A stretch of DNA of 64,000 nucleotides, taken from positions 111,895-175,894 of the IMG/VR virus record IMGVR_UViG_3300042691_047309; one strand, given 5' to 3'. Source of the DNA: a virus. The notes below the pieces were generated by a model. It was given only the letters and a program-made list of their open reading frames with translations, searched no databases and was not told where the DNA came from. Below are positions 10,842 through 35,451 of this stretch, piece after piece (position 1 is the stretch's first letter; every line of letters starts with the position of its first letter). The position numbers were made by a program, and so were the translations under genes.

Positions 10842-11674
10842 GTTTTCTTTCTTTTACGGTTCCAAAAATAAAGAAATATTGGAATAATTATAGTAGTCAT
10901 TAACCATTGCCAGTATTTCTCAAAAAAACCTTCAACTACAATCGGAAGATTTGATTTGATTTTAATATTTTTATTGAATACAATAATGTCTTTATTTAAA
11001 TCTTTCAACTTAATAACTAACTTTAAAGGAGTTTCACCACTTTTTTTAGGTGTCACAATCCATTCCCATTCTGTGTAACTTTCATTATCTATGTTTTGAA
11101 CAGGAGTTGAAAGTGCAACAATGTTGAAAGCTTCTGAGTCACCTCTTAAATCAGCCGACATCTCACCAGAAACTTTGATATCATCAATTGTTGCGACGCT
11201 CTCATATTGAGGATTGTTTATAAAATCATCATTTCCTAATATCAAAACTGATTTATTTTGACCATTTGTCTTTTTAGATATTCTTACTTTTATTGAGTAG
11301 TTTTTAGATACCTTCATGCTTTCAGGTACTGAATAAGCTATCCATCCTTTTGCAGTATCAACTATATTTTCAGAGATATTTTGAATTGACCTATCCACCA
11401 CTTTTAAATTTGTATTTTTTTCGTGTTTTTCAACTAGTCTTATTTGATGAATCACATCAATTTTATTGATGTCGTCTTTTTTTATTACTTTCATTTCTTC
11501 AACTAATTCTTGTCTAATTAAAGTGTCTTTTATCGGCTCAACATTTAATTCATCTTTAATAACCGAGACAGTATCTAGTTTTAAAGACTCTAAATTCGTA
11601 TCTGATTGGGTTACTTTTTGTGTTGCACATGAGACTAACCAAAATGCACTAATAAAAATAAAAATAAATCTCAT
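10829..11674 (-). CDS. lipoprotein with C-terminal TM helix (u-spanin-like topology)
   Basis: signal peptide with lipobox LVSC; C-terminal WQWLMTTIIIPIFLYFW plus basic tail; AAATATATA at 11679-11687 (-). Confidence 0.6.
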   Translation of the reverse strand: MRFIFIFISAFWLVSCATQKVTQSDTNLESLKLDTVSVIKDELNVEPIKDTLIRQELVEEMKVIKKDDINKIDVIHQIRLVEKHEKNTNLKVVDRSIQNISENIVDTAKGWIAYSVPESMKVSKNYSIKVRISKKTNGQNKSVLILGNDDFINNPQYESVATIDDIKVSGEMSADLRGDSEAFNIVALSTPVQNIDNESYTEWEWIVTPKKSGETPLKLVIKLKDLNKDIIVFNKNIKIKSNLPIVVEGFFEKYWQWLMTTIIIPIFLYFWNRKRKKTKKS

Positions 11675-11718: not shown

Positions 11719-12972
11719 ATGGATATTATTAAATTTTCTCAGTTTCTAAATGAAAATGTTATGATAACAGTTCTTGACTGTGTAATTGATGAATTCGGAA
11801 ATTTATACAATGGAACTAACAATCGATATCCGCTAATGAAAGGATATATTGAAAAAGAGAAACTTCCAAAAATTTCAGTTGGTAGAATTTTAGGTGATGA
11901 TAAAAGGACTTATTTAGCTGGTATAGACAAAAACGGTGTTTTAGTAGCAGCTGAAAAAAACAAATCATTAGATGGATATCTAATAGATAATATCGGAAAT
12001 AGAGTAAAAGTTCCGGCTTGGTTAAAAGGTACAAAATCAAGATATTGGAAGTTCTTTGACTTAACAAAGGATGCAAACGGAAATGATGTTCAAAGTTTTA
12101 ATTATGATTACACAAGACTTGTTCCAACTGTTGCAACTGGTTGGGTAAATACTAAAGTTGATATGGAAGTCATCAAAAAAGTTCGTAGATATTCAAGAGG
12201 TTTAGGTCAAGGTTCCGGTAGAGAAGGATTCGTTAGTAAATTGTCTGACTTGCAAAGAATATCTTCTGAAGGACTCCAAAAAAGAAAAAGATCAAGAAAT
12301 ACAATACAGAAAGAAATGTCTGTAATTATGTTACTTCACTACATTAATGAAATTAAAAACTTTTTTACTCCGTCAGCATCTGGATTCCTTTTTGAATCAT
12401 TCTTAGGTGGTTTAATTAAAAACTCAAAAGTGGTTGAAGATAATTCCAAAGCAGATGTAAGAGCTGACGGTGAAACTTGGCAAATAAAACTTTACGATGC
12501 TGTTTCATCCTCTTCGATATCAGTAGCCTATATGGACGAAAGGTCAGTGCCAAAAATTCCGGTAGATCACTTTGTAATTTGTTTGAAATATGCTGATAAG
12601 ATTGATATCGTTGTATTAAGAGGTATTGAAGACACAACAGATCCTCTTTGTTATACTAACTTCATAACCGGTGGTGGTAATTTTTCTGTAGCTAAAATCA
12701 AAAACACACCATTCAAATATACAATAGAGCTTTTAGGTATTGAAGAAAAAATTAAATCTATTGCATCTGGACTTAAAGAATCAATAGATGATATTTATTC
12801 TGATTTAAGCACTTTTCAATATAATATAGAATCAATAATCACTGGAGTAGATGAGAAAGGAAAATTGTTAAACGAGTCTAAGTTTGACCAGACTTACAAT
12901 GAATCAGTTAATATTGCACAAGGACTTGATGTCAAAATAACATCTCTTTACAAGACTATTAAACAAGAATAA
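11719..12972 (+). CDS. putative virion protein with possible PD-(D/E)xK-like nuclease segment
   Basis: MDIIKFSQFLNE tag; GFLFESFL...KADVRADGETWQIKLY; TAATATATA at 11705-11713. Confidence 0.5.
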   Translation: MDIIKFSQFLNENVMITVLDCVIDEFGNLYNGTNNRYPLMKGYIEKEKLPKISVGRILGDDKRTYLAGIDKNGVLVAAEKNKSLDGYLIDNIGNRVKVPAWLKGTKSRYWKFFDLTKDANGNDVQSFNYDYTRLVPTVATGWVNTKVDMEVIKKVRRYSRGLGQGSGREGFVSKLSDLQRISSEGLQKRKRSRNTIQKEMSVIMLLHYINEIKNFFTPSASGFLFESFLGGLIKNSKVVEDNSKADVRADGETWQIKLYDAVSSSSISVAYMDERSVPKIPVDHFVICLKYADKIDIVVLRGIEDTTDPLCYTNFITGGGNFSVAKIKNTPFKYTIELLGIEEKIKSIASGLKESIDDIYSDLSTFQYNIESIITGVDEKGKLLNESKFDQTYNESVNIAQGLDVKITSLYKTIKQE

Positions 12973-21414: not shown

Positions 21415-22101
21415 ATGATTAATATAACTAAAGGTGTCATAGTAACAGAAGTTGATTCTATAATTAAATATATCAATGAGATTAAAAAGATACCGATTCT
21501 TACAAGAGAAGAAGAGTTTGAGATTTGTCAAAGAATCAAATCTGGTGACCAATCTGCTATTTCTGAGTTAGTAAAACACAATTTAAGATTTGTTATACAC
21601 ACTGCAAAAAAGTATCAGAATTTAGGTCTTACATTTGAGGATTTAATATCATTTGGTAACTTGGGTCTTTACAGAGCAGTTGAAAAGTTTGATATTGATA
21701 GAGGATTTAAGTTTATAACATTTGCTGTTTGGTATATCAAATCTGAAATAACAACCGCTATAAATGAACTATCTACTCAGGTGAGGATACCTAACTCACA
21801 GGACTCTGATAATTATGATTTTAAGTCGGAAGATGCTAATTTATCTACAAATGATGTTAGTAGATTCGATAAGAGTGATTTAATGACGGAGTTAAAAATG
21901 GTTCTTAATTGTTTGTCTAGTGAGGAATATGATTATATAACTAGATTTTATGGATTTGGATATGAGTTTGCTCAATCTATTGATGATATTGCTGAAGTAA
22001 TGAGTCTATCTAATGAAAGAGTAAGACAGGTGATTAGAAAGGCTGAAAGAAGGTTAAAGAGTCATCCTAATTTAGATATATTAAGGAAATATTTAGATTA
22101 A
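21415..22101 (+). CDS. RNA polymerase sigma-70 family factor (RpoD/RpoH-like)
   Basis: ILTREEE, LVKHNLRFV, DLISFGNLGL, KFDIDRGFKFITFAVWYI, ERVRQ HTH. Confidence 0.9.
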   Translation: MINITKGVIVTEVDSIIKYINEIKKIPILTREEEFEICQRIKSGDQSAISELVKHNLRFVIHTAKKYQNLGLTFEDLISFGNLGLYRAVEKFDIDRGFKFITFAVWYIKSEITTAINELSTQVRIPNSQDSDNYDFKSEDANLSTNDVSRFDKSDLMTELKMVLNCLSSEEYDYITRFYGFGYEFAQSIDDIAEVMSLSNERVRQVIRKAERRLKSHPNLDILRKYLD

Positions 22102-25110: not shown

Positions 25111-25469
25111 TGTTTGAATTAAACTCACATATGATTCAAAAAATGGGGTGGTTTTCATATCACCCTTCTATTGGACTTGGGTTTGATTTGCCTGGTGTTT
25201 TTCATAGTGATCCTTTTGTTAGATTTTTTTTCATTGACAAGTCTAAAAATGTTGTTTTCATTATTAAAGAAATGACTCCTGATGAAAAACAAAAGACAAA
25301 AAAAGAATATAAATTTATAGATTTTAAAACACCAATAAACATAAAAGCTACTAAGATGAATATAGTAGAATTTAACTCAAATGAAGAATTATGGAAACTG
25401 GTTATTGAAAATGAGGCTTGTGGTGAAAATTATCAAAGACACTTTAGACTAAACAAAATATTAAAATGA
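25110..25469 (+). CDS. hypothetical protein with C-terminal RHFRLNKILK motif
   Basis: likely start MFELNS overlapping the upstream TGA. Confidence 0.5.
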   Translation: MFELNSHMIQKMGWFSYHPSIGLGFDLPGVFHSDPFVRFFFIDKSKNVVFIIKEMTPDEKQKTKKEYKFIDFKTPINIKATKMNIVEFNSNEELWKLVIENEACGENYQRHFRLNKILK

Positions 25470-26092
25470 AAAGAAAAGAATTAAAAATTTTAGGTCTCTC
25501 TTATAGCCAAACACAAATCGGATCTTATGTTTGTGTGCTAACTGAAAAAAAGGGAACAATTAAGATACCACTTATTATTAAAGCAAATGAAGCTCAAAGA
25601 ATTGCACTTGAACTTGAAGGTATTAAACCAACTAGAACTCTAACACATGATACCATTAAAGGTATTTGTGATTCTTTTGATTTAGATGTTCAGGAAGTTT
25701 TTATTTACGCACTTATGGAAGGTGTTTTCTACACCAGAATAGTAGTTTCTAACGGAATTGATGAAATGGAAATTGAAACAACTATTGGTGATGCACTTGC
25801 TCTATCAACAATATATAAATGTCCAATTTACACTACCACTGATATCATAGGTTCGGTAGGTGTCAAAATTAATGATGATGGTAGCTTTGATTCAAATGAT
25901 AAAGATGAAGATGATTTTGAGGATGATGATTTTGAAGATGATTTTGATAGTTTTATTGATGATGGAAAAAAAGAAAGAGTTGTCTCTGTTGAAGATTTAG
26001 AGATACTTATGCAAAATGCTATTGATAATGAAGAGTATGAAATTGCAGCAGAACTAAGAGACCGCATACAAAAATTAAAAAATGAAGAATAA
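25466..26092 (+). CDS. bifunctional nuclease (DUF151) with UvrB/UvrC motif
   Basis: LGLSYSQTQIGSY, EAQRIA, LTHD, EGVFY, GDALAL; C-terminal AIDNEEYEIAAELRD. Confidence 0.85.
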   Translation: MKRKELKILGLSYSQTQIGSYVCVLTEKKGTIKIPLIIKANEAQRIALELEGIKPTRTLTHDTIKGICDSFDLDVQEVFIYALMEGVFYTRIVVSNGIDEMEIETTIGDALALSTIYKCPIYTTTDIIGSVGVKINDDGSFDSNDKDEDDFEDDDFEDDFDSFIDDGKKERVVSVEDLEILMQNAIDNEEYEIAAELRDRIQKLKNEE

Positions 26093-26523
26093 TGGAGAAA
26101 AAGTTATACGATAAAATCGATAGTAATATACTTAAATCACTACCTAACCCAACTGAAGAAGCTTACGAGGCAAAAATAAAAATTCCAGAATGTACCTTTT
26201 TAGGAGTTCATGAACAACCAGATTTTGCTAGTTTCTACCTTACTTTTTATGCTGATAAAAAAATCATTGAATTGAAATCTCTTAAACATTACATCTATCA
26301 ATTGAGAGATATTGTAGTTTCATATGAGAGACTAATCAATATCGTTTATGAGGATTTAATGAAAACATATGAGCCTACTAGATTAAGAATCGTTATGGTT
26401 TGTAATCCACGAGGCGGTATAAGTTCTAAACTAACCATTGATTCGGATTGGGGAATTAGAGGTGGGAAAGAAATTTTCAAAGACTGGCACCAATCAGAGG
26501 ACACTTGGGAAGTTGTAATGTAA
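26092..26523 (+). CDS. queF: QueF-family T-fold protein (variant active site)
   Basis: LPNP, QPDF, ELKSLKHY, SYE, PRGGI; canonical TSLCP reads TFLGV. Confidence 0.75.
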   Translation: MEKKLYDKIDSNILKSLPNPTEEAYEAKIKIPECTFLGVHEQPDFASFYLTFYADKKIIELKSLKHYIYQLRDIVVSYERLINIVYEDLMKTYEPTRLRIVMVCNPRGGISSKLTIDSDWGIRGGKEIFKDWHQSEDTWEVVM

Positions 26524-26588
26524 AAAAAAATTACAATAAAGGCAACTTAGGTTGTCTTTTTTTATATAACAAAAAAATAAAATATTAA

Positions 26589-27488
26589 ATGGCATTATCT
26601 TATATCGGTGGTAAGTCAAGAATCGGAACTTGGATTAGAAATTATATTCCAAAAGACATTGAGACTTATGTAGAACCTTTTTCCGGAATGTTCTGGGTCT
26701 TCTTCAAAATGGAGCTTCCAGTATATCAAAATATCAAAACTGTCGTTTATAACGACTGGAACCCACTCAATGTAAATCTTTTCAACTGTATCAAAAATTA
26801 CAAAGAGTTTTATGATGTGATTAAAGATTATAAATCACAGGATAAATCAATGTTTGAAAAGTTTCAAAAAGAGATTTTTAGTCCTGAATTTAAAATAGAT
26901 TTGACCAATTCTGATTATCACACGGCCGCAAAATACGCTTATGTTTTATCACAAGTTTGGTCTGGGACTAATCCTGAGAAATCTAAATTTATTGATCTTA
27001 AGGGTAAATATAAATCAAAGTTTGATTCATTTGTTAATAAACTTCAAAACCCTAATTGGCAAAAGTATTTTGATAAAATAACAGTTTGTGAAAATTTAGA
27101 CTTTGAAGAAGTTATTAAAAAATATGATTCGGAAAGAACATATTTCTACTGTGATCCACCTTACTATAAGACGGAAAAGTATTACGCAAATCATGAGTTT
27201 GGAATTGAAACACATGAAAGATTGGCAAATTGTTTAAAATCAACTACTGGTAAATTTTCACTTAGCTACTATCACTTTGAACAATTAGAGGAATGGTTTC
27301 CAAAAGATGAGTATCAGTGGCAATCTAAAGAATTCTCAAAAGCAGCAATGGCTAAGGCAGGTAAATCTCAAACAGTTGGAACTGAACTACTAATTATGAA
27401 CTATGGAAAAGTAGAAAAGAGAGAATTGATAGAAGAAGAAAAGACATCAACTATTTTAGATGATGATAACTTTGATTTCAGTATTTAA
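26589..27488 (+). CDS. dam: Dam-like (D12 class) DNA adenine methyltransferase
   Basis: YIGGKS, YVEPFSG, VYND, YCDPPY, ELLIMNY. Confidence 0.88.
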   Translation: MALSYIGGKSRIGTWIRNYIPKDIETYVEPFSGMFWVFFKMELPVYQNIKTVVYNDWNPLNVNLFNCIKNYKEFYDVIKDYKSQDKSMFEKFQKEIFSPEFKIDLTNSDYHTAAKYAYVLSQVWSGTNPEKSKFIDLKGKYKSKFDSFVNKLQNPNWQKYFDKITVCENLDFEEVIKKYDSERTYFYCDPPYYKTEKYYANHEFGIETHERLANCLKSTTGKFSLSYYHFEQLEEWFPKDEYQWQSKEFSKAAMAKAGKSQTVGTELLIMNYGKVEKRELIEEEKTSTILDDDNFDFSI

Positions 27489-27548
27489 TTTATAAAAGGA
27501 GACTTGATAATTTTTATAAATAAGTTATAAAAATTATCACTCTTTTCT

Positions 27549-27770
27549 ATGAAGTACAAACCCGGTGATATAGTCATTAAAACCACAGGTGGTAATAAAA
27601 TGACAATCTTTGATAAGATATCCGATGGTGTTTATAAATGTCTTTGGTTTGTTGAAAACTCAATGAAGGAATCCGTATTTAATGAGGAGGAATTAGTTAC
27701 TTTAAATGAGTATAAACGGTTTCTGAAAACGGAAGAAAGAGAAGATAAGATTAATCAATTACTGGGTTAA
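27549..27770 (+). CDS. YodC/DUF2158-like protein with C-terminal REDKINQLLG
   Basis: YKPGDIV..TTGGNKMT...CLWF...F.EEEL. Confidence 0.7.
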   Translation: MKYKPGDIVIKTTGGNKMTIFDKISDGVYKCLWFVENSMKESVFNEEELVTLNEYKRFLKTEEREDKINQLLG

Positions 27771-28248
27771 AATAAACATTTAATGATATTGACTTATATT
27801 CTTCGTGGTGTGAATTCATATCAATAAGAACTTTATCATAACTATCTTTAAGTCTATCCCAAGTTACTAAAATATCCTTTAACTTATCAACACCAGAATC
27901 ATCTAAAATAGCATAATCAGCTTTTATCTTTATGGTAGCACAAAATACAAACGGATATTCATCTAAATCAGTTGTGCGTAAAAATAATTGACGGTAAGAC
28001 TCATTATCAAGATATCTATTAGCTTCTTCTGTTTGAGATTGAACCCATCTTTCAAAATTTCCATTATTTGGATTTACAGACCAAAGCATGTCACGCTCTT
28101 TTACACCAGAGTATCCACAAACACACATGCTATAAGATACAACATCATCATCTTCATACTCTACGAAATATTCCCTAATCTTATTTACTTCATCTTTGAA
28201 AGAATCAGACGAATTACTTTCATTAAATTTTGACCAGTCTTTAATCAT
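27751..28248 (-). CDS. putative virion protein (MIKDWSKFNES tag)
   Basis: 165 aa; TAATATATA at 28317-28325 (-), preceded by a 20-aa ORF at 28250-28312. Confidence 0.55.
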   Translation of the reverse strand: MIKDWSKFNESNSSDSFKDEVNKIREYFVEYEDDDVVSYSMCVCGYSGVKERDMLWSVNPNNGNFERWVQSQTEEANRYLDNESYRQLFLRTTDLDEYPFVFCATIKIKADYAILDDSGVDKLKDILVTWDRLKDSYDKVLIDMNSHHEEYKSISLNVYFNPVID

Positions 28249-28322
28249 ACTACTTCTTTCTTACAGCAACTCTACCTTTAAGTAAAGATTTTAATAATTC
28301 TAATATTTTCATAGATTATATA

Positions 28323-31112
28323 TTAAAAATTATATTTGAAAGAAAGACTTATTGATTGACCAAAGTTTATTTCCTGCCATCTATTGTCACCAGATGTATA
28401 TTTTCTATTACCATCTAAATCTTGAAATAAAATCAAATCTTGAGATATAATATCTTTGATATTCAGTTTAAGCTCACAATTTTTAATTGTCTTAGAAATT
28501 TGTAAATCAATTACATTTCTACCATTTTCCCAAACAGATGGCTCTTGAACATTACCAACTATATAAATCCTTTGGCCTATTAGGTTGTATGAAATTGTCG
28601 CTGTGAAATCCTTTTTAGGGGATGTGTAAAATAAACCAGAATTTATTATAAAAGGTGATTGTCCCTGTAGAGGTCTATTTTCAGATCCATGAAAACCTTC
28701 TAAATTAACTTCAGACTTAATAAGTGATGCATTTGTGTATATTGATAGATTTTCAAATTTACTGGATATAAATTTTAAATTAGTTCTCATTTCAATCTCT
28801 GCTCCGAAATTTCTACTTGACTTAGCATTCATGTAATACAATTCTGGAGAACCTGAAGTTCCCGTTCTGTTTATCAACTCTATTGGGTTTATGAATTTTT
28901 TATAGAAACCGGATACTGAAATCATTTGACCACTTTTAGGAAACCACTCCCATCTTAAATCTAAATTATCAATGGTTGCTCTCTCTAATTTAGGATTTCC
29001 AGAAACTATGTTGTCTAAAACAAAGTTATAAAAACTAAATGGTGCTAATTCTCTAAACTCTGGTCTCGAAACTGACTTGAAGTAAGCCGCTCTTATTTTC
29101 ATTTTATCAGTTAGTGAATAGATTAAATTCAATGAAGGTAAAACATCAATAACAGTTGTATCAATTGTCTTTTTTAAGTTACTTCCGAATTCAACATAAT
29201 TAAACTTCTGACTGTAAGACTCAACTCTCACTCCTGTAACAAATCTGAAATTGTTTATTTTTGAATCTGTCATTAGAAATCCAGAGTTGAGAAATGAATT
29301 CGCTGAGTAAGAGTCATCGACATTTGTCGCTTCATCTAATTTGAATCCACCTGTTCCATCGGATAAAAGACCCATATTTTGTTGTGAGAAGATTTCACTC
29401 GCTGGAAGTAAAAGTAACTGTGAGTTGAAATACGAACCTTGTGGTTTATATTGAGAAAATCCAAAGTTTCTTGATATAAATTCTTTGTCTCTAAATTGAT
29501 GCCATCCTCCGAGTTTAATCTCATTTTCTAATTTTGATATATTGACCGGTATTATATAATCATAATTCAAAGACCATATATTTTCACCTGATTTAGACCA
29601 AAACATATTACCAGCAGCTGTTGGAATAGTTCCATTTGATTGTATGACAGCCGCGTATTGTTGAGTCGTATCATCTTCGTATAAAGAGTATTTTCTATAA
29701 ACTATTCTTCTTAAATTCGGAATATCTCTTATAACATTTGAATATCCAATATTCCAATTGAATACGGTTTTTTTAATATCGTGTTTTCCAGATAACTGAT
29801 TTGTTAAAATATTATTTTGTGTTAGCCAAAAATTAGTGGATTTTTCCCATTGACGAGGATCATTATCCATTTCACGAACACCGTTTCTAACATTTATTCT
29901 ATCTTCAGAGTTTATTGAATATAAAGATTTCAACTTAATGTTGTTTTTTTGATTAATTTTTAGACTCAAATTCAATAAGTTAGTAAATAATATATTTTTT
30001 GTAAAAACCGAATCTTTTAATTCCATTTTCGTAATTACACCTGAAGCTTGTTCTTCAAAATCTCGCCTGATTGAATTATTCATTGATTCAACATTTTGAT
30101 AAGATGTAGCAAAAATAAGACCTAATTTTGTGTCTTTTTTTAATTTAATTTCTTTACCAATGGTCCATTGTAAAGTTCCACCTGGAAGAGCTAATCTTTG
30201 ATTAGTGGTCCAGTTCCAATTCATCAGTTTAGAATAGTCAGCTCTCTGATTTTTATCAGTTAATAACCAGTCTTCTATTGTTGGTATTCCATCTGGTAGA
30301 TTTCTTGATTTACCAGCAATTCCTAAAAATTCTAAACCAGAATTTTTATTATAATTAAAGTTTCTAAAAGTAGAGATTGTGTTATAATTTAAACCTAAAC
30401 TTAGATTATGTATAACCTTAGCATCAAGTGTTGATACATTTATCACACCACCTGCAAACTCACCAGGTAGGTCTGGAGAACCCGATTTATAAATGACTAA
30501 ATTGTCTAATATATTTGAAGGAAATATATCAAAAGAAAAAGCTCTTTTGTCAGATTCGGTCGATGGTAGAGGACTTCCATTTATAAGTCCAAAATTATAT
30601 CTATCATTAAGTCCTCTTATGATAACGAATTTGTTTTCCTGTATTGAAGCTCCTGAAACTCTTTTAAATACATCAGTAGCTTTAGAATCAGGTGTTTTTT
30701 TAAATTGTTCTGATGTCACTCCATCTAAAGAAACTGCTGATTTATTTTGCATTCTTATAATTTCAGAAGTTGATCCTTTATCAACCGTCATAGTGACTGT
30801 CACTCCCTCAAGCTCCTGTGTTTTAGATTCTAAACTTACAACTATTGAAGTGTCGGAATTTATAGATAATTCTATTAACTTATTTTGATACCCGATATAT
30901 CTGAACTCAATTCTATTAACACCTTTAGATAGATTAATTTTGAAATTACCATCATAATCTGTTCTAGTCCCTGTTTGTTGATTAATTATATATACTGTTG
31001 CACCAAAAAGTGACTCACCTGATTGAGAGTCACTAATGGTTCCAGTTAGTGTTTGTGAAAATGTGTAATAAGAAATAAATAATAATACTACACTTAAAAA
31101 TAAATTTCTCAT
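28323..31112 (-). CDS. TonB-dependent outer-membrane receptor
   Basis: signal peptide; N-terminal CarboxypepD_reg-like domain (LFGATV, TDYDGNF); plug (IIRGLNDRY, PGEFAGG); SRPEFRE, GNPKL; ends in YNF. Confidence 0.92.
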   Translation of the reverse strand: MRNLFLSVVLLFISYYTFSQTLTGTISDSQSGESLFGATVYIINQQTGTRTDYDGNFKINLSKGVNRIEFRYIGYQNKLIELSINSDTSIVVSLESKTQELEGVTVTMTVDKGSTSEIIRMQNKSAVSLDGVTSEQFKKTPDSKATDVFKRVSGASIQENKFVIIRGLNDRYNFGLINGSPLPSTESDKRAFSFDIFPSNILDNLVIYKSGSPDLPGEFAGGVINVSTLDAKVIHNLSLGLNYNTISTFRNFNYNKNSGLEFLGIAGKSRNLPDGIPTIEDWLLTDKNQRADYSKLMNWNWTTNQRLALPGGTLQWTIGKEIKLKKDTKLGLIFATSYQNVESMNNSIRRDFEEQASGVITKMELKDSVFTKNILFTNLLNLSLKINQKNNIKLKSLYSINSEDRINVRNGVREMDNDPRQWEKSTNFWLTQNNILTNQLSGKHDIKKTVFNWNIGYSNVIRDIPNLRRIVYRKYSLYEDDTTQQYAAVIQSNGTIPTAAGNMFWSKSGENIWSLNYDYIIPVNISKLENEIKLGGWHQFRDKEFISRNFGFSQYKPQGSYFNSQLLLLPASEIFSQQNMGLLSDGTGGFKLDEATNVDDSYSANSFLNSGFLMTDSKINNFRFVTGVRVESYSQKFNYVEFGSNLKKTIDTTVIDVLPSLNLIYSLTDKMKIRAAYFKSVSRPEFRELAPFSFYNFVLDNIVSGNPKLERATIDNLDLRWEWFPKSGQMISVSGFYKKFINPIELINRTGTSGSPELYYMNAKSSRNFGAEIEMRTNLKFISSKFENLSIYTNASLIKSEVNLEGFHGSENRPLQGQSPFIINSGLFYTSPKKDFTATISYNLIGQRIYIVGNVQEPSVWENGRNVIDLQISKTIKNCELKLNIKDIISQDLILFQDLDGNRKYTSGDNRWQEINFGQSISLSFKYNF

Positions 31113-32671
31113 TTATTGATAGTTATCGTTTTTGTAATATCTCCTACTTTTACAAAGTAGATTCCACTTGATAAATTTGATAAATTAATATAAGAGTCAT
31201 TAGTAGAGATTAAATTCTTACCTAAATTATCTGATATCGAGACTATAACATTTCTGTCTGACTTGATATTTATGTAATCAGTAGCAGGATTTGGATAAAC
31301 AACTACATCTGAATTAGAAATTTCAGAAACAGTCAAAAATCCACCTTGAAATTTAGGGTTGGTGAAGTCAGCTCCTGTTGATACTGTAGAATTATTATTT
31401 AGTCTGAAATCTGGATTATTTGAAAAAGCATCAACCCAAGAAATTTGATCTATTGATTTAGTAGTATCATTTGAATTCTGATTAAAAAATGTTGAATAAA
31501 ATTGTGTAGTAGCTGTTACTAAATTAAATCCGGTTGTGAATTCAACTAAATCATTATTTGCGAAAACTAAATTTCCATTTGATATATTTGTTTCAACTGG
31601 TAATCCTTCAATTGATAGCCCCTTTTCCCAACCAGTAACTAAAGAGTTAAATATTGAAATTGAAGAGTTTCTTCTTATTCTGAAAGATTTCTCAAATTTC
31701 TCACCAACTGGAAGTTGAATACTACCATCACCTTTTGGTCCTATGATTGTGAAGTTTGAAAATATAGCCGATGTTTGTGGTGTATTTGATGAACCTTGAG
31801 CATCATTGTCTGATTCAAAACAATTTGAATCACCCGCAGCATCTGATAAATATTGAGTTCTTATTGATAATCCAAATTGAACTTTTCCTCTATATCCAAA
31901 ATCAGTATCGAAATCATCATCAGTTCCTTTAAAAGCAATCAAGTGTCTGCAATTAACAGTTCCGCCAAACCATTCAAATGAATCATCTCCTGAAAAAGAA
32001 ACTTGAACGAAATCAACTTCTGTTTCACTACCTACGGATCCAAAAGTCAAACCATTTATTTCTTTGTTAGGCTCTAGTGCAATTCCTGCAAATTCTATTC
32101 TAACATATTTTAATATTCCCGAATTGTCTAAGTCATTACTTCCACCATACTCGGTATTGGAAGTTGGTGAAATTCCTTCAATATTTGCAACTCCACCAGG
32201 TTGGTTATTAGTTGCTTGTCCTAAGATCACCAGACCACCCCAATCACCTTCAGCTCTTAGACCGACATTTTGTGAAGAAGTGAAAACTATTGGATTTGTT
32301 GATGTGCCTTCTGCTATTATTTTTGAGCCTTTTGTTATAATCAAACTACCTTGAGTGGAACCATCTCCTCTGATTATAGTTCCTGGTAGAATTGTTAATA
32401 CTGCTCCATTTTTAACATAAACTTTATTTTCTAATAGAACTACTCCAGAGATGGTTGTATTTGTAGTAATATCGTTATTTAAGGTTGAAGTAATTTGAGG
32501 ATAATAGGTATTTTCAGGATCGAAATTTGACCAACCATCTGTCCAGTCTGTCTGAGATGTTCCATCTGTCACCGGAAATGCTCCTTTATAGCTTGTTGAT
32601 GTCCAAAATGCTTGCTGACTTAATAACAAATTAGAAATGCAAATTGTAATTAATGTAATTAATTTTTTCAT
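31109..32671 (-). CDS. secreted beta-helix-like protein with T9SS type A C-terminal sorting domain
   Basis: signal peptide; GDWGGLVILG, DNSGILKYVRIEFAG, DDSFEWFGG; CTD VYPNPATD...INLSNLSSGIYFVK. Confidence 0.85.
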   Translation of the reverse strand: MKKLITLITICISNLLLSQQAFWTSTSYKGAFPVTDGTSQTDWTDGWSNFDPENTYYPQITSTLNNDITTNTTISGVVLLENKVYVKNGAVLTILPGTIIRGDGSTQGSLIITKGSKIIAEGTSTNPIVFTSSQNVGLRAEGDWGGLVILGQATNNQPGGVANIEGISPTSNTEYGGSNDLDNSGILKYVRIEFAGIALEPNKEINGLTFGSVGSETEVDFVQVSFSGDDSFEWFGGTVNCRHLIAFKGTDDDFDTDFGYRGKVQFGLSIRTQYLSDAAGDSNCFESDNDAQGSSNTPQTSAIFSNFTIIGPKGDGSIQLPVGEKFEKSFRIRRNSSISIFNSLVTGWEKGLSIEGLPVETNISNGNLVFANNDLVEFTTGFNLVTATTQFYSTFFNQNSNDTTKSIDQISWVDAFSNNPDFRLNNNSTVSTGADFTNPKFQGGFLTVSEISNSDVVVYPNPATDYINIKSDRNVIVSISDNLGKNLISTNDSYINLSNLSSGIYFVKVGDITKTITINK

Positions 32672-32781
32672 AATTTTTTTTTGTTTTTTATTTTTATATA
32701 TGTGATTTGTCTAAATCAATAAAAAACACAAAAATCATCTAAACTATTGCTGGGTAATAGTTTCAAACGATTTTTACTTTT

Positions 32782-32809
32782 GTTAAGAAATCGTTAAGAA
32801 AAGGTTATA
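32782..32809 (-). promoter_or_regulatory. 11-bp-period direct repeat (Pho-box / OmpR-family-like operator)
   Basis: GTTAAG at 32782 and 32793, GTTATA at 32804, upstream of the T9SS-cargo/TBDR operon. Confidence 0.5.
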
Positions 32810-32835
32810 AAATCAGCACATCTAATATATAACCT

Positions 32836-33180
32836 ATGAAACTTGACATAAATGAAGTATATCATAACTATATTGTTAGAGTGGTAATTTTTTCACTCTT
32901 CACTTATAAGAGATTAGTTAGGCAGCCAAATGTATATAAACAATCTGTTCTTTCGTTTGTGACTAAAAGAGTTGCATGGAAAATACATCTTGTTATAGAT
33001 ACTGGTCTTCAAATGTCAAAAGATGAAGAAAGAGATATAGTATTAAATGAGTTACTCGAAGGAATTGAATCTGATTATCTAACAACAGTAACTGTTACTT
33101 TTACAACACCACTTAAAGAAATAACAATAGAGGTTGATTTAAAAGATGAAGATAAATACCAAAACTTTCTGTACTTATAA
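32836..33180 (+). CDS. hypothetical protein (internal RDIVLNELL motif)
   Basis: 114 aa; TAATATATA at 32823-32831. Confidence 0.5.
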   Translation: MKLDINEVYHNYIVRVVIFSLFTYKRLVRQPNVYKQSVLSFVTKRVAWKIHLVIDTGLQMSKDEERDIVLNELLEGIESDYLTTVTVTFTTPLKEITIEVDLKDEDKYQNFLYL

Positions 33181-33195
33181 TTTAATATATAAAGT

Positions 33196-33867
33196 ATGAA
33201 ATATTTAAGTAATTGGAAACAAATAAATGAAGCTGATAATCAACTAACTGAAGAAACACCAAGTAGATCTGGTAGAGTATTAACTCAAGCTCAGCGAGAG
33301 TGGAATGATGATTCTTCTATAGAAAGAGGTGATAATTTACCTTCAGTTCTCTTTACTGATGTTGAGGGATCTTCTGAAAAATGGTCAAGTGATGCTGTAA
33401 CAATGATGGAGCAATTGAAAGGACATCATGAGTTAGTTAATAGAATTTCTAAAAAGTATAACGGATGGATTGTTAAAACAATAGGAGATGCTTTTATGAT
33501 ATATTTTGAACCAAATACTGATTCACTAACAAATGCAATTAAATGTGGTAAAGAGATAATTTTGTCTGAAAAAAACTATAATTTAAGAGTTGGGGTTTGC
33601 CAGGGTCCGATGCAAGAAGATACTTATGAGTTACAAAAGGTAACTCTAAGAGATTTTTATGGTAACTCTATAAATGTTGCATCTAGAATGGAGTCTAAAA
33701 TCGCAGAAGCTGCCGGTTATATTGCTTTTACATCACTTGAGCCAATTAGTAAAAATATTATATCTCAGTATAGTAAAACAATTGGTGAGGTTTTAGATGT
33801 TGATTTAAGTAAATTTGATCTAAAAGGAGCTAAAACCGAATCTGCTTATAGAATAAAAGTAAAATGA
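33196..33867 (+). CDS. class III adenylate/guanylate cyclase
   Basis: LFTDVEGSS, VKTIGDAFM, RVG, DFYGNSINVASRME; TAATATATA at 33183-33191. Confidence 0.9.
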   Translation: MKYLSNWKQINEADNQLTEETPSRSGRVLTQAQREWNDDSSIERGDNLPSVLFTDVEGSSEKWSSDAVTMMEQLKGHHELVNRISKKYNGWIVKTIGDAFMIYFEPNTDSLTNAIKCGKEIILSEKNYNLRVGVCQGPMQEDTYELQKVTLRDFYGNSINVASRMESKIAEAAGYIAFTSLEPISKNIISQYSKTIGEVLDVDLSKFDLKGAKTESAYRIKVK

Positions 33868-33904
33868 TTTTACTTTATTAAATTTTTTTTAGTATATTTG
33901 TAAT

Positions 33905-34120
33905 ATGTTTATCTGTGTTAGTAATACATCAAATAGAAGTGAATTAGAAATAGGAAAATACTATGACTTATTTAAACATGAGCAACACCCAAAAGTTGTT
34001 TGGGTAAAAATACCCGATTCATCTAATACTGTTGGTTACAGAACTATTCAATGTTATTTAGCTGACTTTAAAAATAAAGGTCAATGGAGAAATGATCAGA
34101 TTGATAAGATTTTAGATTAA
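33905..34120 (+). CDS. small hypothetical protein with C-terminal WRNDQIDKILD
   Basis: 71 aa after TATATTTG at 33893-33900. Confidence 0.55.
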   Translation: MFICVSNTSNRSELEIGKYYDLFKHEQHPKVVWVKIPDSSNTVGYRTIQCYLADFKNKGQWRNDQIDKILD

Positions 34121-35451
34121 TCTTCCCAAAAGAAATAGACAAACTTATCTGGCCATCTGTAATCAAAGTGTGCAAAACCATATAACTCTGCAACTCTTTC
34201 TAATCTATCATCAGTATTTCTTGGAAGTTCTCCGTCATACTCGATTGAGTCAAATTCAACATAAACATTATCATCATGTTCTGTGACATCTAAAATATGT
34301 AAGCCAGTATGATGTTCGAAATTGGACCTGAACTCATTGGTATCAAATTTCTTTTCACCAACTCTTTCGTCTTTCTTTTTGAATTTAAAATCAATTGTGT
34401 GAAATTTAATATCTGTTTGTTCACCTTCACTTGAATAAGGCTCGAATTTCACTAAAGACCAACCTAAATCTGAAAGTCTAGCAATTACCACTTGCATTTC
34501 ATCACAAATTCTAACAAAGTCTTCATAGGTCTTAAATTTATCATTTTTAAAGAATCTTATAAAAAACTGAGAAACCAAAACACCGCTACTCATTTTTATT
34601 TGTGGTTGGAAACTGGTATCACCATCTAAATATTGTTGATAAGTAATACCACCACCATGTGATATAAATTTTATATCATATCCATCATCAATAAAATCTA
34701 GCATAGTATCAACTATTTGTGAAGTAACATCTTTGTTATCAACACTTTCTTTAATGACGTATCTGTCATTCTTTCTAATTGCTAACTTACCATCAATAAA
34801 TTTATAAAACTTATATTTCTTATCAATTGATGTTACTAAATAATATGCATCTGGATTAAGTGCTTTATATCTTTGAATATTACCTTCTACTTTAACTCCA
34901 TCAACTTCACCACCCTGTTGTTTAGCATAAGCCCATTGAATATAGTGTGGATCAACGTGACGTGATCTTAAAGCATCTTGGTCAATAGAGGTTTGTAAAG
35001 TAGAAAGTAAATGAATGAATATTATTTTATATTTATTTTGTCTAGCATTATCATAAATCTCTTTTATGTGTTCATATCCTTTATCTGTGAATTCTTTTCC
35101 AGCACCAGTTGTGTCATAGATAAAGTTTTGACCAGTTTCCATAAACTCCATCATTCTTAGAAGATTTAATTCAGAAGCATTCTTAGTTCTACCACCTTCT
35201 TTTTTTTCTCTACCTCTGTAATAAACATTTGGATCTTTTGTAAAAAGAAGTGAAACATCATCAGTTGAGAAGTCTTTAATGTTTCTATTTTTAGTATGAA
35301 TATGATTTTTAACAAAGTAAGACTTTCCGATACCTGGTGCTCCAATCAAGAAGATAGCTAGTCCTCTACTCATTCCAATGATTTCTGGAATCGGCTCGTT
35401 TTTAGAAACTTCTTCTAAAATAAATTGGTTATATTCCTTAATAAATTTCAT
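34117..35451 (-). CDS. zeta-toxin/AAA_33-like P-loop kinase fused to a C-terminal domain
   Basis: GAPGIGKS, STDD, FIYDTTG, RSRHV lid; MKFIKEYNQFILE tag; TAATATATA at 35461-35469 (-). Confidence 0.7.
   Translation of the reverse strand: MKFIKEYNQFILEEVSKNEPIPEIIGMSRGLAIFLIGAPGIGKSYFVKNHIHTKNRNIKDFSTDDVSLLFTKDPNVYYRGREKKEGGRTKNASELNLLRMMEFMETGQNFIYDTTGAGKEFTDKGYEHIKEIYDNARQNKYKIIFIHLLSTLQTSIDQDALRSRHVDPHYIQWAYAKQQGGEVDGVKVEGNIQRYKALNPDAYYLVTSIDKKYKFYKFIDGKLAIRKNDRYVIKESVDNKDVTSQIVDTMLDFIDDGYDIKFISHGGGITYQQYLDGDTSFQPQIKMSSGVLVSQFFIRFFKNDKFKTYEDFVRICDEMQVVIARLSDLGWSLVKFEPYSSEGEQTDIKFHTIDFKFKKKDERVGEKKFDTNEFRSNFEHHTGLHILDVTEHDDNVYVEFDSIEYDGELPRNTDDRLERVAELYGFAHFDYRWPDKFVYFFWED

Follow-up and report, generated by a model that had tools for sequence, protein, structure and literature searches.

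The window analysed here is a stretch of 64,000 nucleotides from an IMG/VR virus record, a contig of 175,894 bp (CheckV completeness 73%), and its minus strand carries two overlapping genes. A preliminary description had read these as an intact 520-aa secreted protein with a type A T9SS sorting domain and a 929-aa TonB-dependent receptor, preceded at about 110 nt by three repeats at 11-bp spacing. All of these were recovered, at the following positions:

28323..31112, minus strand: TonB-dependent transporter of 929 aa (ORF call, Pfam/NCBIfam)
31109..32671, minus strand: secreted beta-helix protein of 520 aa, the cargo (ORF call, Pfam/NCBIfam, AF2, Foldseek)
32741..32763, minus strand: perfect 8-bp inverted repeat, AAACTATT / AATAGTTT, with a 7-nt loop (inverted-repeat search)
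32764..32767, minus strand: TTTG, candidate core of a Bacteroidota -7 promoter element (sequence reading)
32782..32808, minus strand: three direct repeats, a candidate PhoB-type site or Pho box (sequence reading, bacterial and pstS comparison)
32808-32804, minus strand: ATAAC, first repeat
32797-32793, minus strand: TTAAC, second repeat
32786-32782, minus strand: TTAAC, third repeat

The 520-aa protein begins with a signal-like stretch, read as a Sec signal, continues as a pectate-lyase-like beta-helix (PF28492, Beta_helix_4, residues about 20-440) and ends in its type A T9SS domain at residues 458-518, where Por_Secre_tail (Pfam) and TIGR04183 (NCBIfam) both exceed their cut-offs; the contig has three T9SS tails in all. 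Its AF2 model (pLDDT 89.8) was matched by Foldseek to Pel9A (1ru4, prob 0.99) and to the CTD of a T9SS substrate (8glk_D, TMt 0.76). Four RNA contigs, all from one metatranscriptome, are identical to the cargo gene, a weak hint of its expression. The transporter ORF overlaps the cargo ORF by 4 nt; in its product a signal peptide is followed by a CarboxypepD_reg-like N-domain, then by plug and beta-barrel, F being the last residue, with CarbopepD_reg_2, Plug and TonB_dep_Rec_b-barrel all above their cut-offs. Its best NCBIfam model is TIGR01782, of Xanthomonas/Caulobacter type (200 bits, cut-off 310), the SusC model TIGR04056 reaches 65 bits (cut-off 368), and the Pfam search of the receptor returned no match to PF14905.

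Neither gene has a PHROGs match, and both are of a typically cellular kind, which would suit bacterial DNA misassembled onto phage DNA, or a bacterial contig misfiled as a virus. We consider such an artefact highly improbable. PHROGs matches occur all along the window, including a baseplate wedge, a sigma factor (21415-22098) and nucleotide-metabolism genes, and the GC content is even (0.27-0.33). Moreover, a contig of 16.5 kb (X3) and small ones (X18) assembled in other studies cross both junctions of the block with 0 differences, and an 18.8-kb contig (X2) covers positions 26000-35000; since independent assemblies bridge both junctions, the block is not a chimera. At least 0.97 of the sampled words of the stretch are present in 19 runs of 15 studies, each run possibly being the source, so that independence is not given for all of them. 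A phage-specific gene order common to 21 viral loci, described below, also argues against an artefact. The phage context claimed earlier, and its continuity into flanking phage DNA, thus hold.

The spacing of the three repeats is exactly 11 bp, and the third lies 111 nt 5' of the ATG at 32671. Their units are too short for a general repeat search, which does not list them. The pattern WTAAY-N6-TTAAY-N6-TTAAY occurs once on the two strands of the whole contig, and a reversed control pattern 0 times; there are seven perfect TTAAY-N6-TTAAY pairs in the contig, this site being the sole TTAAC/TTAAC pair, and two in the window, versus 7.2 +/- 3.2 in mononucleotide shuffles. The chance of a sense-orientation TTAAC-N6-TTAAC in this 164-nt spacer, estimated from base composition, is about 8e-4. 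The Bacteroidota promoter consensus is TAnnTTTG, and the TTTG lies 14 nt 3' of the last repeat. The inverted repeat falls in the presumed 5' leader, whose fold reaches -16.7 kcal/mol (z = -3.79), and may form a hairpin or serve as an operator. On the plus strand, a divergent gene starts at 32836, a distance of 28 nt from the repeats. Its use of the same spacer was counted against a Pho reading, as was the first box being ATAAC and not TTAAC.

Relatives are encoded in 599 bacterial stretches, and the best 78 loci are mostly from freshwater Crocinitomicaceae, Fluviicola or Lishizhenia MAGs. In 74 of these best 78 loci the receptor adjoins the cargo gene; identity between phage and bacterial proteins is 47-68% for the cargo (best 78 loci) and 38-64% for the receptor. 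In a FastTree phylogeny of 121 distinct rows, the protein of the window belongs to a clade of 27 rows, all viral (support 98), which has a Crocinitomicaceae clade of 52 rows (97) as its sister and is nested among other Flavobacteriia.

The neighbourhood of the bacterial pair, which includes a PhoB/PhoR-like two-component system, links the pair to phosphate. An OmpR/PhoB-type regulator stands beside the pair in 5/6 bacterial loci scanned, and 61 of 70 evaluable loci encode a PhoB-like response regulator no more than 2.5 kb from it, with at least 50% identity in 56 of those 61 and with a kinase also present in 43. The best NCBIfam models of this regulator are PhoB, and against the Bacteroidota PhoB model it ranked top in three of five genomes, tied for top in one and came second in one; it scores only 204-217 bits, however, where the curated PhoB cut-offs are 270 and 296, which counts against this assignment, and it could be a dedicated paralogue. 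A true pstSCAB lies 10 kb from the pair in a distant genome (G005), and at two loci (L003 and L074) a GT28 gene is close by, like in the F. johnsoniae phoBR cluster.

The promoters tell a similar story. A perfect TTAAY triple at 11-bp spacing is found in 36/60 bacterial receptor promoters, and in 44/60 bacterial loci the boxes stand exactly 25 nt (14+11) before TTTG; the bacterial cargo gene has a boxed spacer of its own, each bacterial gene thus having its own boxed promoter. The same TTAAY box pair stands in front of Flavobacteriales pstS: across 79,236 bases of pstS loci, 7/8 perfect TTAAY-N6-TTAAY pairs precede pstS by no more than 250 nt, at 5/8 loci with PstS above cut-off, and the 14-nt distance between box and TTTG seen in the phage recurs at pstS of G005 and L183. 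In the comparison with pst upstream regions proposed in the preliminary description, the phage repeat thus matches the boxes of Flavobacteriales pstS, and it matches those of the bacterial operons as well. Three comparisons count against it or restrict it: perfect pairs precede PhoX-like genes of the host family in only 3/25 cases; in the phage, 111 nt separate the boxes from the ATG, whereas in bacteria the first box stands about 70-90 nt before it; and the phage site scores only 6.1 bits on a 36-nt matrix trained on 50 distinct bacterial receptor promoters, the lowest training site having 12.4 and shuffled phage genomes reaching 15.5 on average, so that the likeness between phage and bacteria is confined to core pentamers, spacing, orientation and place.

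Among viruses, 63 IMG/VR contigs encode the beta-helix cargo; the receptor lies directly behind it in 21 and in front in 0, and no receptor is seen at 42 of the 63 loci, some of which end too early to judge. The phage order, cargo then receptor, is the reverse of the bacterial one. Both phage genes are intact and homologous to the bacterial pair; in the reversed order, and in the separate promoters of the bacterial genes, the arrangement differs from a simple captured operon. Phage genes flank the module at 5/5 viral loci checked. TTAAC-N6-TTAAC/G is present upstream of the cargo gene in many viral loci, and viral groups distinct from one another carry boxes (the groups of L122 and of L119, and L174/L177/L179, the last with a perfect triple); in the L157-L165 group there are no recognisable boxes and the cargo gene comes after another ORF. 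Between viral copies dN/dS is about 0.1 (0.06-0.16, 7 pairs for each gene), and judging from these ratios both genes are under purifying selection in phages.

We favour, with a probability of roughly 0.57, the reading that the block is a host-derived outer-membrane uptake pair of the Pho regulon, which a giant phage from freshwater, with a Crocinitomicaceae-like member of the Flavobacteriales as its host, retains as an auxiliary module. The interpretation in the preliminary description is supported, by sequence comparison, in every element open to computational checking. In a Pi-starved infected cell, the phosphorylated PhoB-like regulator of the host would bind the three boxes, which would occupy the -33 region of the promoter, and recruit host RNA polymerase, giving one shared transcript for cargo and transporter. 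Both products would cross the inner membrane via Sec; the host T9SS would export the beta-helix protein and anchor it on the cell surface, and host BAM would insert the barrel, energised by host TonB-ExbBD. Host factors would be needed, since the contig search found neither a TonB_C domain nor a response-regulator receiver domain; that PhoH is not found in the contig was counted against this reading. At the surface, the beta-helix protein would partner the transporter as a 'lid' or substrate catcher, the role suggested for ElpS, FII and BT4056, and the pair would increase uptake of a phosphorus-bearing substrate for synthesis of the roughly 240-kb phage genome. Intact copies of importer and partner behind a host-type repeat suggest that, under starvation, the phage probably has the infected cells scavenge phosphorus on its behalf; PhoB binding, low-Pi induction and the benefit to the phage are what we infer from this arrangement.

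An alternative that we hold to be unlikely is that a diverged phage lid, with or without the transporter, caps or replaces the host version, in superinfection exclusion or progeny protection. On this reading, the Pho-induced transporter-lid complex of the host would be an abundant surface structure and the receptor of this phage group, with the Pho boxes timing the masking. Phage T5 Llp, which blocks FhuA, is a model for such masking. The commoner phage-borne form is indeed the cargo gene alone (no visible receptor at 42/63 viral loci), the phage proteins have diverged from the bacterial ones to the identities given above, starved Flavobacterium cells carry FI-type proteins in great abundance (PMC8115612), and receptor interference has been proposed for phage-encoded outer-membrane proteins, lambda Lom-LamB being cited (10.64898/2026.10.24.761521). 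However, a whole transporter is unnecessary for a mask, yet it is present in 21/63 loci and in this phage; strong purifying selection on its barrel and plug (dN/dS 0.06-0.10) fits a working importer, and adsorption of the phage to this transporter would have to be assumed.

Slightly less probable still is a genuine uptake or surface module whose repeats are a relic or due to chance, expressed on the phage's own programme and indifferent to phosphate. The phage sigma factor, the low matrix score, the degenerate first box, the long leader with a hairpin absent from bacterial promoters and the viral relatives with no recognisable boxes, such as the L157-L165 group, would agree with this, as would the failure of predicted phage Pho boxes in cyanophage tests (PMC10976474). 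Against it, the site is the sole triple and sole TTAAC/TTAAC pair in 175.9 kb, is sense-oriented before the one gene with boxed bacterial orthologues and is in phase with TTTG, as at pstS; boxes also recur in the three viral groups named above. The Pho-regulated uptake pair remains our preferred reading.

Several known systems resemble this pair. The F. johnsoniae phoBR cluster 'PUSIV' comprises GT Fjoh_0541, OprP 0542, PhoR 0543, PhoB 0544, TBDT 0545 and the FII lipoprotein 0546, and Pi depletion strongly induces both the TBDT and the pectin-lyase-fold FII (Lidbury et al., ISME J 2020/21, PMC8115612). Compared by layout, it matches our bacterial relatives: in both, phoBR and GT28 have as neighbours a TonB-dependent transporter and, after it, a surface protein of pectin-lyase fold. 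The Pi-starvation induction of such pairs in Flavobacteria, stated in the preliminary description, is thus found in print for this layout. In contrast to PUSIV, the phage pair is in reversed order and without phoBR, its partner has a T9SS type A tail and no lipobox, and its receptor has no match to PF14905, listed for Fjoh_0545 (PMC8115612), which counts against the parallel. ElpS (CC0170) of Caulobacter crescentus, with a neighbouring TonB-dependent receptor, is reportedly induced by Pi starvation (Le Blastier 2010, PMC2996285), and the BT4055/BT4056 'lid' pairs join a non-SusC transporter to an outer-facing pectin-lyase-superfamily protein, a proximity conserved in 621 genera (Price and Arkin, 10.1101/2023.03.17.533168). 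The phage pair shares this combination, its membership being by fold class and synteny only, and its transporter's best model (TIGR01782) is of Xanthomonas/Caulobacter type; ElpS and BT4056 are, however, cellular lipoproteins and not phage-borne. Huge phages encode outer-membrane beta-barrel proteins, including a 22-strand TonB-dependent receptor of Lak phage, and in aquatic phages some of these genes adjoin phosphate-acquisition genes (10.64898/2026.10.24.761521). Our phage is likewise large and encodes an outer-membrane protein, whereas the passages of that survey considered here describe no beta-helix partner, T9SS sorting, Pho-type boxes or Crocinitomicaceae origin ('T9SS' and 'type IX' occur 0 times each).

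Phage Pho-regulon auxiliary genes are of a kind already known. Cyanophage Pho-regulon genes (pstS, phoA) are under the control of host PhoBR by way of Pho boxes (PMC10976474), as Zeng and Chisholm reportedly described in 2012. Host PhoBR control of cyanophage pstS and the cyanobacterial Pho box PyTTAAPyPyT/A, both given earlier (the latter as a TTAAC-like core), are stated in PMC10976474. The same paper warns that Pho boxes predicted in phages are unreliable without binding tests, a caution that weighs against the present site. The present pair differs in the phylum of its host and in being a two-part outer-membrane machine that would need host T9SS, BAM and TonB, in place of a periplasmic binding protein. 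With cyanophage pstS and phoA it nonetheless shares a host origin and a probable phosphorus-acquisition function in a phage, TTAA-core direct repeats at 11-bp spacing and an expected response to the host PhoB.

The two genes of the block and the elements in front of them are listed below, with two further T9SS sorting domains that lie before the window and carry whole-contig coordinates:

28323-31112 (-): 929-aa open reading frame (the receptor), overlapping the 520-aa frame by 4 nt, with CarbopepD_reg_2, Plug and TonB_dep_Rec_b-barrel domains
31109-32671 (-): 520-aa open reading frame (the cargo, from the ORF call), with a signal-like N-terminus and a T9SS type A tail at residues 458-518
32741-32763 (-): perfect 8-bp inverted repeat with a 7-nt loop, in the presumed cargo leader, after the TTTG
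32767-32764 (-): TTTG, 14 nt past the last repeat
32808-32804, 32797-32793 and 32786-32782 (-): ATAAC, TTAAC and TTAAC, at 11-bp spacing, read from the sequence
G000:C1:96273-96449 (-) and 100010-100219 (+): two other T9SS sorting domains, on open frames of 527 and 731 aa

The cargo tail scores 44 bits against PF18962 (cut-off 27) and 34.9 bits against TIGR04183 (cut-off 23), and together with the signal-like (Sec) N-terminus this C-terminal sorting domain gives the protein the features of a type A T9SS cargo; the whole phage contig holds three such tails. The family PF28492, which the protein atlas names Beta_helix_4 ('pectate-lyase like beta helix'), is assigned in precomputed form to the cargo and to 120 of 120 listed relatives. 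An AlphaFold2 model built on a 36-sequence alignment (mean pLDDT 89.8) shows a beta-helix followed by a beta-sandwich tail, and the cargo is accordingly predicted to be a pectate-lyase-like right-handed beta-helix. In Foldseek comparisons with the PDB the helix found weak, fold-level matches only, to pectate lyase Pel9A (probability 0.99, TM 0.34-0.43) and to phage tailspikes; the tail clearly matched the C-terminal domain of a solved T9SS substrate (8glk_D, TMt 0.76, 32% identity), and it alone matched in a profile search of PDB sequences. No lipobox-type cysteine context was seen by eye in the cargo N-terminus, and the T9SS tail would provide an alternative route to the surface, instead of lipoprotein anchoring. 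The nearest bacterial relatives of the cargo gene come from Flavobacteriales, and their copies carry the T9SS tail too. The phage partner is a short form of 515-530 aa, compared with about 840-850 aa in many Crocinitomicaceae (bacterial loci L012, L033, L040 and L048), where Ig_7 and PKD domains stand between beta-helix and tail.

The receptor has a plug (PF07715, 35.8 bits, cut-off 23.9) followed by a beta-barrel (PF00593, 93.9 bits, cut-off 27), the domain order expected of a TonB-dependent transporter, which we predict it to be; it ends in KYNF, and the stretch ELEGVTVT at residues ~99-106 presumably resembles a TonB box. Its best NCBIfam model is TIGR01782, of the Xanthomonas/Caulobacter type, at 200 bits, under the cut-off of 310. 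Assignment to SusC/RagA was rejected: TIGR04056 (cut-off 368 bits) reaches 65.5 bits and covers the N-terminal 138 residues only, and the partner is a beta-helix, not SusD. In one viral subgroup (loci L118, L123, L125 and relatives) the receptor has 853-864 aa and the match begins at residue 99 of the window protein, so the CarboxypepD_reg-like N-terminal domain is missing there or replaced.

The three repeats lie in the 164-nt spacer common to the cargo gene and the divergent gene starting at 32836, and have the layout of a Pho box, being direct repeats that precede the gene, read in its sense direction and recur every 11 bp. With both strands of the contig scanned, WTAAY-N6-TTAAY-N6-TTAAY has a single match and its reversed control none; perfect TTAAY-N6-TTAAY pairs number seven in the contig, the TTAAC/TTAAC form being found solely at the cargo site. 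The only other perfect pair in the window (TTAAT...TTAAT, 11545-11560, +) stands ~175 nt 5' of a 417-aa frame (11719-12972) for which PHROGs gave no match. The presumed 98-nt leader of the cargo gene folds with z = -3.79, and the bacterial promoters show no counterpart of its 8-bp inverted repeat.

With one genome scanned per species, cargo relatives are encoded in 599 bacterial stretches, and the best 78 of these loci, at 47-68% identity to the cargo, come mostly from freshwater Crocinitomicaceae, Fluviicola and Lishizhenia MAGs. A receptor homologue adjoins the cargo homologue in 74 of the 78, always upstream and on the same strand (74/74), the bacterial order thus being receptor, then partner. 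A homologue of the neighbouring regulator lies within 2.5 kb of the pair in 61 of 70 evaluable loci, with at least 50% identity in 56, and a kinase is also present in 43. Of six loci analysed with Pfam, five have a response regulator of OmpR/PhoB type next to the pair, in most cases together with a HisKA/HATPase kinase; in the sixth, L031, the regulator is of LuxR type, and a Guanylate_cyc+HD gene follows the pair immediately. The best NCBIfam models of the regulator are two PhoB models at 204-217 bits, under their cut-offs of 270 and 296, and those of the kinase are PnpS and PhoR, likewise below cut-off. No protein in five host-like genomes passed the Bacteroidota PhoB cut-off, and the regulator of the pair ranked first in three of them, shared first place in another and came second in the last. 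In four of these genomes (G001-G004) there is just a PstS-like gene, which belongs to an ExbB-ExbD-TonB cluster and has no pstCAB alongside; the fifth, the more distant Bacteroidota G005, has a true pstSCAB at a distance of 10 kb from the pair. A GT28 glycosyltransferase is found near the pair in two bacterial loci (L003 and L074).

At the bacterial receptor promoters a perfect TTAAY triple with 11-bp spacing is present in 36 of 60 loci, and the best triple stands exactly 25 nt before a TTTG in 44 of 60, this TTTG being ~25 nt from the ATG; when 13 matching letters of 15 are enough, 54 of 60 have a triple at that 25-nt distance from the TTTG. The bacterial partner gene has a spacer of its own (113-418 nt), often behind a terminator-like hairpin, with like boxes at a like distance to TTTG, and a perfect box pair in 16 of 73 cases. 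Because the bacterial partner has this boxed spacer, the phage arrangement of boxes, partner and receptor can derive from the partner's own promoter. As G001-G004 have only the PstS-like gene without pstCAB, pstS promoters were taken from other Flavobacteriales: among 151 genomes, 21 had a PstS-family match at E <= 1e-40, eight of them over the curated cut-off. These 21 loci (79,236 bases, both strands) contain only eight perfect TTAAY-N6-TTAAY pairs, seven of which are in sense orientation no more than 250 nt upstream of pstS, in five of the eight loci over the cut-off. At pstS of L183 (a Flavobacteriales locus) and of G005 the distance from the last box to a TTTG is 14 nt, the same as in the phage, and the 25 nt of the bacterial operons exceeds it by one turn of 11 bp. 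The cyanobacterial Pho box consensus PyTTAAPyPyT/A also resembles the TTAAY core (PMC10976474). The link to phosphate that the preliminary description had proposed for the pair is supported by its bacterial neighbours, and the comparison that it had suggested, of the repeats with the upstream regions of pst operons, gave a likeness at part of the pstS loci.

Of 25 PhoX-like genes of the host family only three have a perfect pair upstream, although these are three of the four pairs in 116,452 bases. Strict TTAAY triples number 0-3 per genome in the five host-like genomes and, beyond the operon promoters, lie at a peptidase M43 gene, at an OmpA-family gene and between two convergent genes; a regulon could not be derived from them. 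In a scan with a 36-nt matrix trained on 50 distinct bacterial promoters the phage site does not stand out; it scores 6.1 bits (training-site minimum 12.4; mean of the best sites in shuffled genomes 15.5), so the likeness to the bacterial sites is confined to cores, spacing, orientation and place, and the flanks are unlike.

Concerning the origin of the block, the preliminary description had considered that it might be an assembly chimera, and contigs of other studies dispose of this. The source record (175,894 bp, CheckV completeness 73%), of which the window is the final 64 kb, has PHROGs matches spread over the whole window, including an HNH endonuclease, tRNA nucleotidyltransferase, sigma factor, DHFR, thymidylate and guanylate kinases, tail-fibre pieces and a baseplate wedge protein, and an even GC of 0.27-0.33. 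At least 0.97 of the sampled words of a 7-kb stretch are present in 19 runs from 15 studies (lake and other freshwater metagenomes, 2017-2025), any of which may be the source of the window DNA. A contig of 16,468 bp from run X3 covers 27853-35000 with 0 differences, one of 18,840 bp from X2 covers 26000-35000, and small contigs from X18 span the junctions at 28323 and 32671-32836; an artefact is most improbable. Megablast with 27500-33300 as query found nothing among GenBank phages, and tblastn gave no cultured phage, its matches being solely to unannotated metagenomic records. Among these, short human-faecal 'Bacteriophage sp.' contigs have the bacterial gene order, and the published huge-phage genome LR745206.1 ('uncultured phage', 634,780 bp) has, in an unannotated region (77457-81033, -), a cargo-like frame immediately 5' of a receptor, as in our phage, with identities of 40% over residues 79-312 and 27.5%, respectively.

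The genes around the block (165-aa, 114-aa, cyclase, AAA and DUF2158) have no relatives at any of the bacterial (78) and viral (63) loci, so that the flanks are peculiar to this phage. The stretch just before the block (25466-27488, +) encodes a bifunctional nuclease that has a UVR motif, a QueF-like protein, which hints at modification of DNA with 7-deazaguanine, and a Dam-type N6-adenine methyltransferase. On the other side, after the 114-aa divergent gene (32836-33180, +), a 223-aa protein (33196-33867, +) has a class III adenylate/guanylate cyclase catalytic domain (PF00211, 56.9 bits), and this small phage-borne cyclase could have a role in signalling or counter-defence. In the metatranscriptome X20, four RNA contigs are identical to 31564-32285, inside the cargo gene, and one lies in the Dam methylase gene; as RNA libraries can contain DNA this is only a hint that the cargo gene is transcribed, and stretches without RNA contigs are uninformative.

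Partner relatives are encoded at 63 IMG/VR loci (38-69% identity, contigs up to 290-295 kb), with the receptor directly behind the partner in 21 and in front in none, some of the loci ending too early for the receptor to be judged. Phage genes flank the viral loci in five of five checked; in L134, for instance, a major head protein lies 1.7 kb from the receptor. This pair-bearing relative also has a PhoH-like gene (L134:44-562, +) ~9.4 kb upstream of the cargo gene. Upstream boxes are found as TTAAC-N6-TTAAC, 8 nt from TTTG, in the L122 group, as TTAAT/C-N6-TTAAC in the L119 group and as a perfect triple in L174, L177 and L179; in the L157-L165 group boxes are absent and the gene comes after another frame. 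In a FastTree phylogeny of 121 distinct partner proteins (19 identical rows merged, rows with fewer than 300 aligned residues dropped; support values local, root not inferred) the window partner belongs to a purely viral clade of 27 (98), whose sister is a Crocinitomicaceae clade of 52 rows (97). The dN/dS ratios, from seven viral pairs each, span 0.07-0.16 (partner) and 0.06-0.10 (receptor). The pair constitutes phage auxiliary metabolic genes, being of host origin, in a bona fide phage genome and kept under selection.

We favour the reading, with a probability of roughly 0.57, that the phage keeps a Pho-regulon uptake pair which is probably switched on by the host PhoB-like regulator in starved infected cells. 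The pair would then be wired to the starvation sensor of the host, and the Sec, T9SS, BAM and TonB machineries of the infected cell would have to stay active for it to work; in the phage contig (a 73% complete record) no TonB_C, response-regulator receiver domain or PhoH was found. That the module functions and its boxes no longer work is rather unlikely: the low matrix score and the boxless L157-L165 group speak for it, the unique triple and its pstS-like distance to TTTG against it. It is doubtful, too, that the pair serves to mask or swap receptors.

A phosphate-gated form of that swap is conceivable, if likewise improbable. A starved host would coat itself in the transporter-lid complex and these phages would adsorb to it; the host Pho signal would drive the phage's diverged copies, which would cap or replace the complex, shutting out superinfecting phages and sparing progeny from debris, and in the barrel-carrying phages phosphorus import would also be kept going. 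If true, it would be the first case in which a phage takes over a nutrient-stress switch of its host to set the timing of receptor remodelling via the T9SS.

As for the favoured phosphorus-uptake reading, the module is widespread, with 63 IMG/VR contigs of which some exceed 290 kb, and since it is also under purifying selection and this particular phage is present in lake metagenomes of many studies, the pair bears on phosphorus flow through infected cells of P-limited lakes. Moreover, phages keep a minimal set, either partner plus barrel or partner alone, which provides a starting point for finding the substrate of the widespread ElpS/FII-type pairs.

Our literature search turned up no paper describing the module in a phage; closest comes a preprint of 2026 about huge-phage outer-membrane proteins (10.64898/2026.10.24.761521), the searched text of which does not mention the T9SS. 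The best described bacterial counterpart is a Flavobacterium johnsoniae cluster that comprises a glycosyltransferase (pf04101), OprP, PhoR, PhoB, the TonB-dependent transporter Fjoh_0545 and 'FII' Fjoh_0546, of pectin-lyase fold (IPR011050); in the account of Lidbury et al. (PMC8115612) the last two are induced ~8-10 log2-fold on Pi depletion, and FI, FII and FIII are related to ElpS of Caulobacter. Price and Arkin (10.1101/2023.03.17.533168) describe BT4055/BT4056, Fjoh_0546 and ElpS as one family of a transporter with an outer-facing 'lid', the two genes being side by side in 621 genera, with few confident contacts for BT4055/BT4056. The phage pair fits this family by fold class and synteny, not by direct alignment: the partners of both stand beside a non-SusC TonB-dependent transporter, whereas the cargo is without a lipobox and has a T9SS tail. 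Cyanophage phosphorus genes under host PhoB control are a parallel from another host group; however, their product is soluble and periplasmic, while here a Bacteroidota phage carries a two-part outer-membrane machine.
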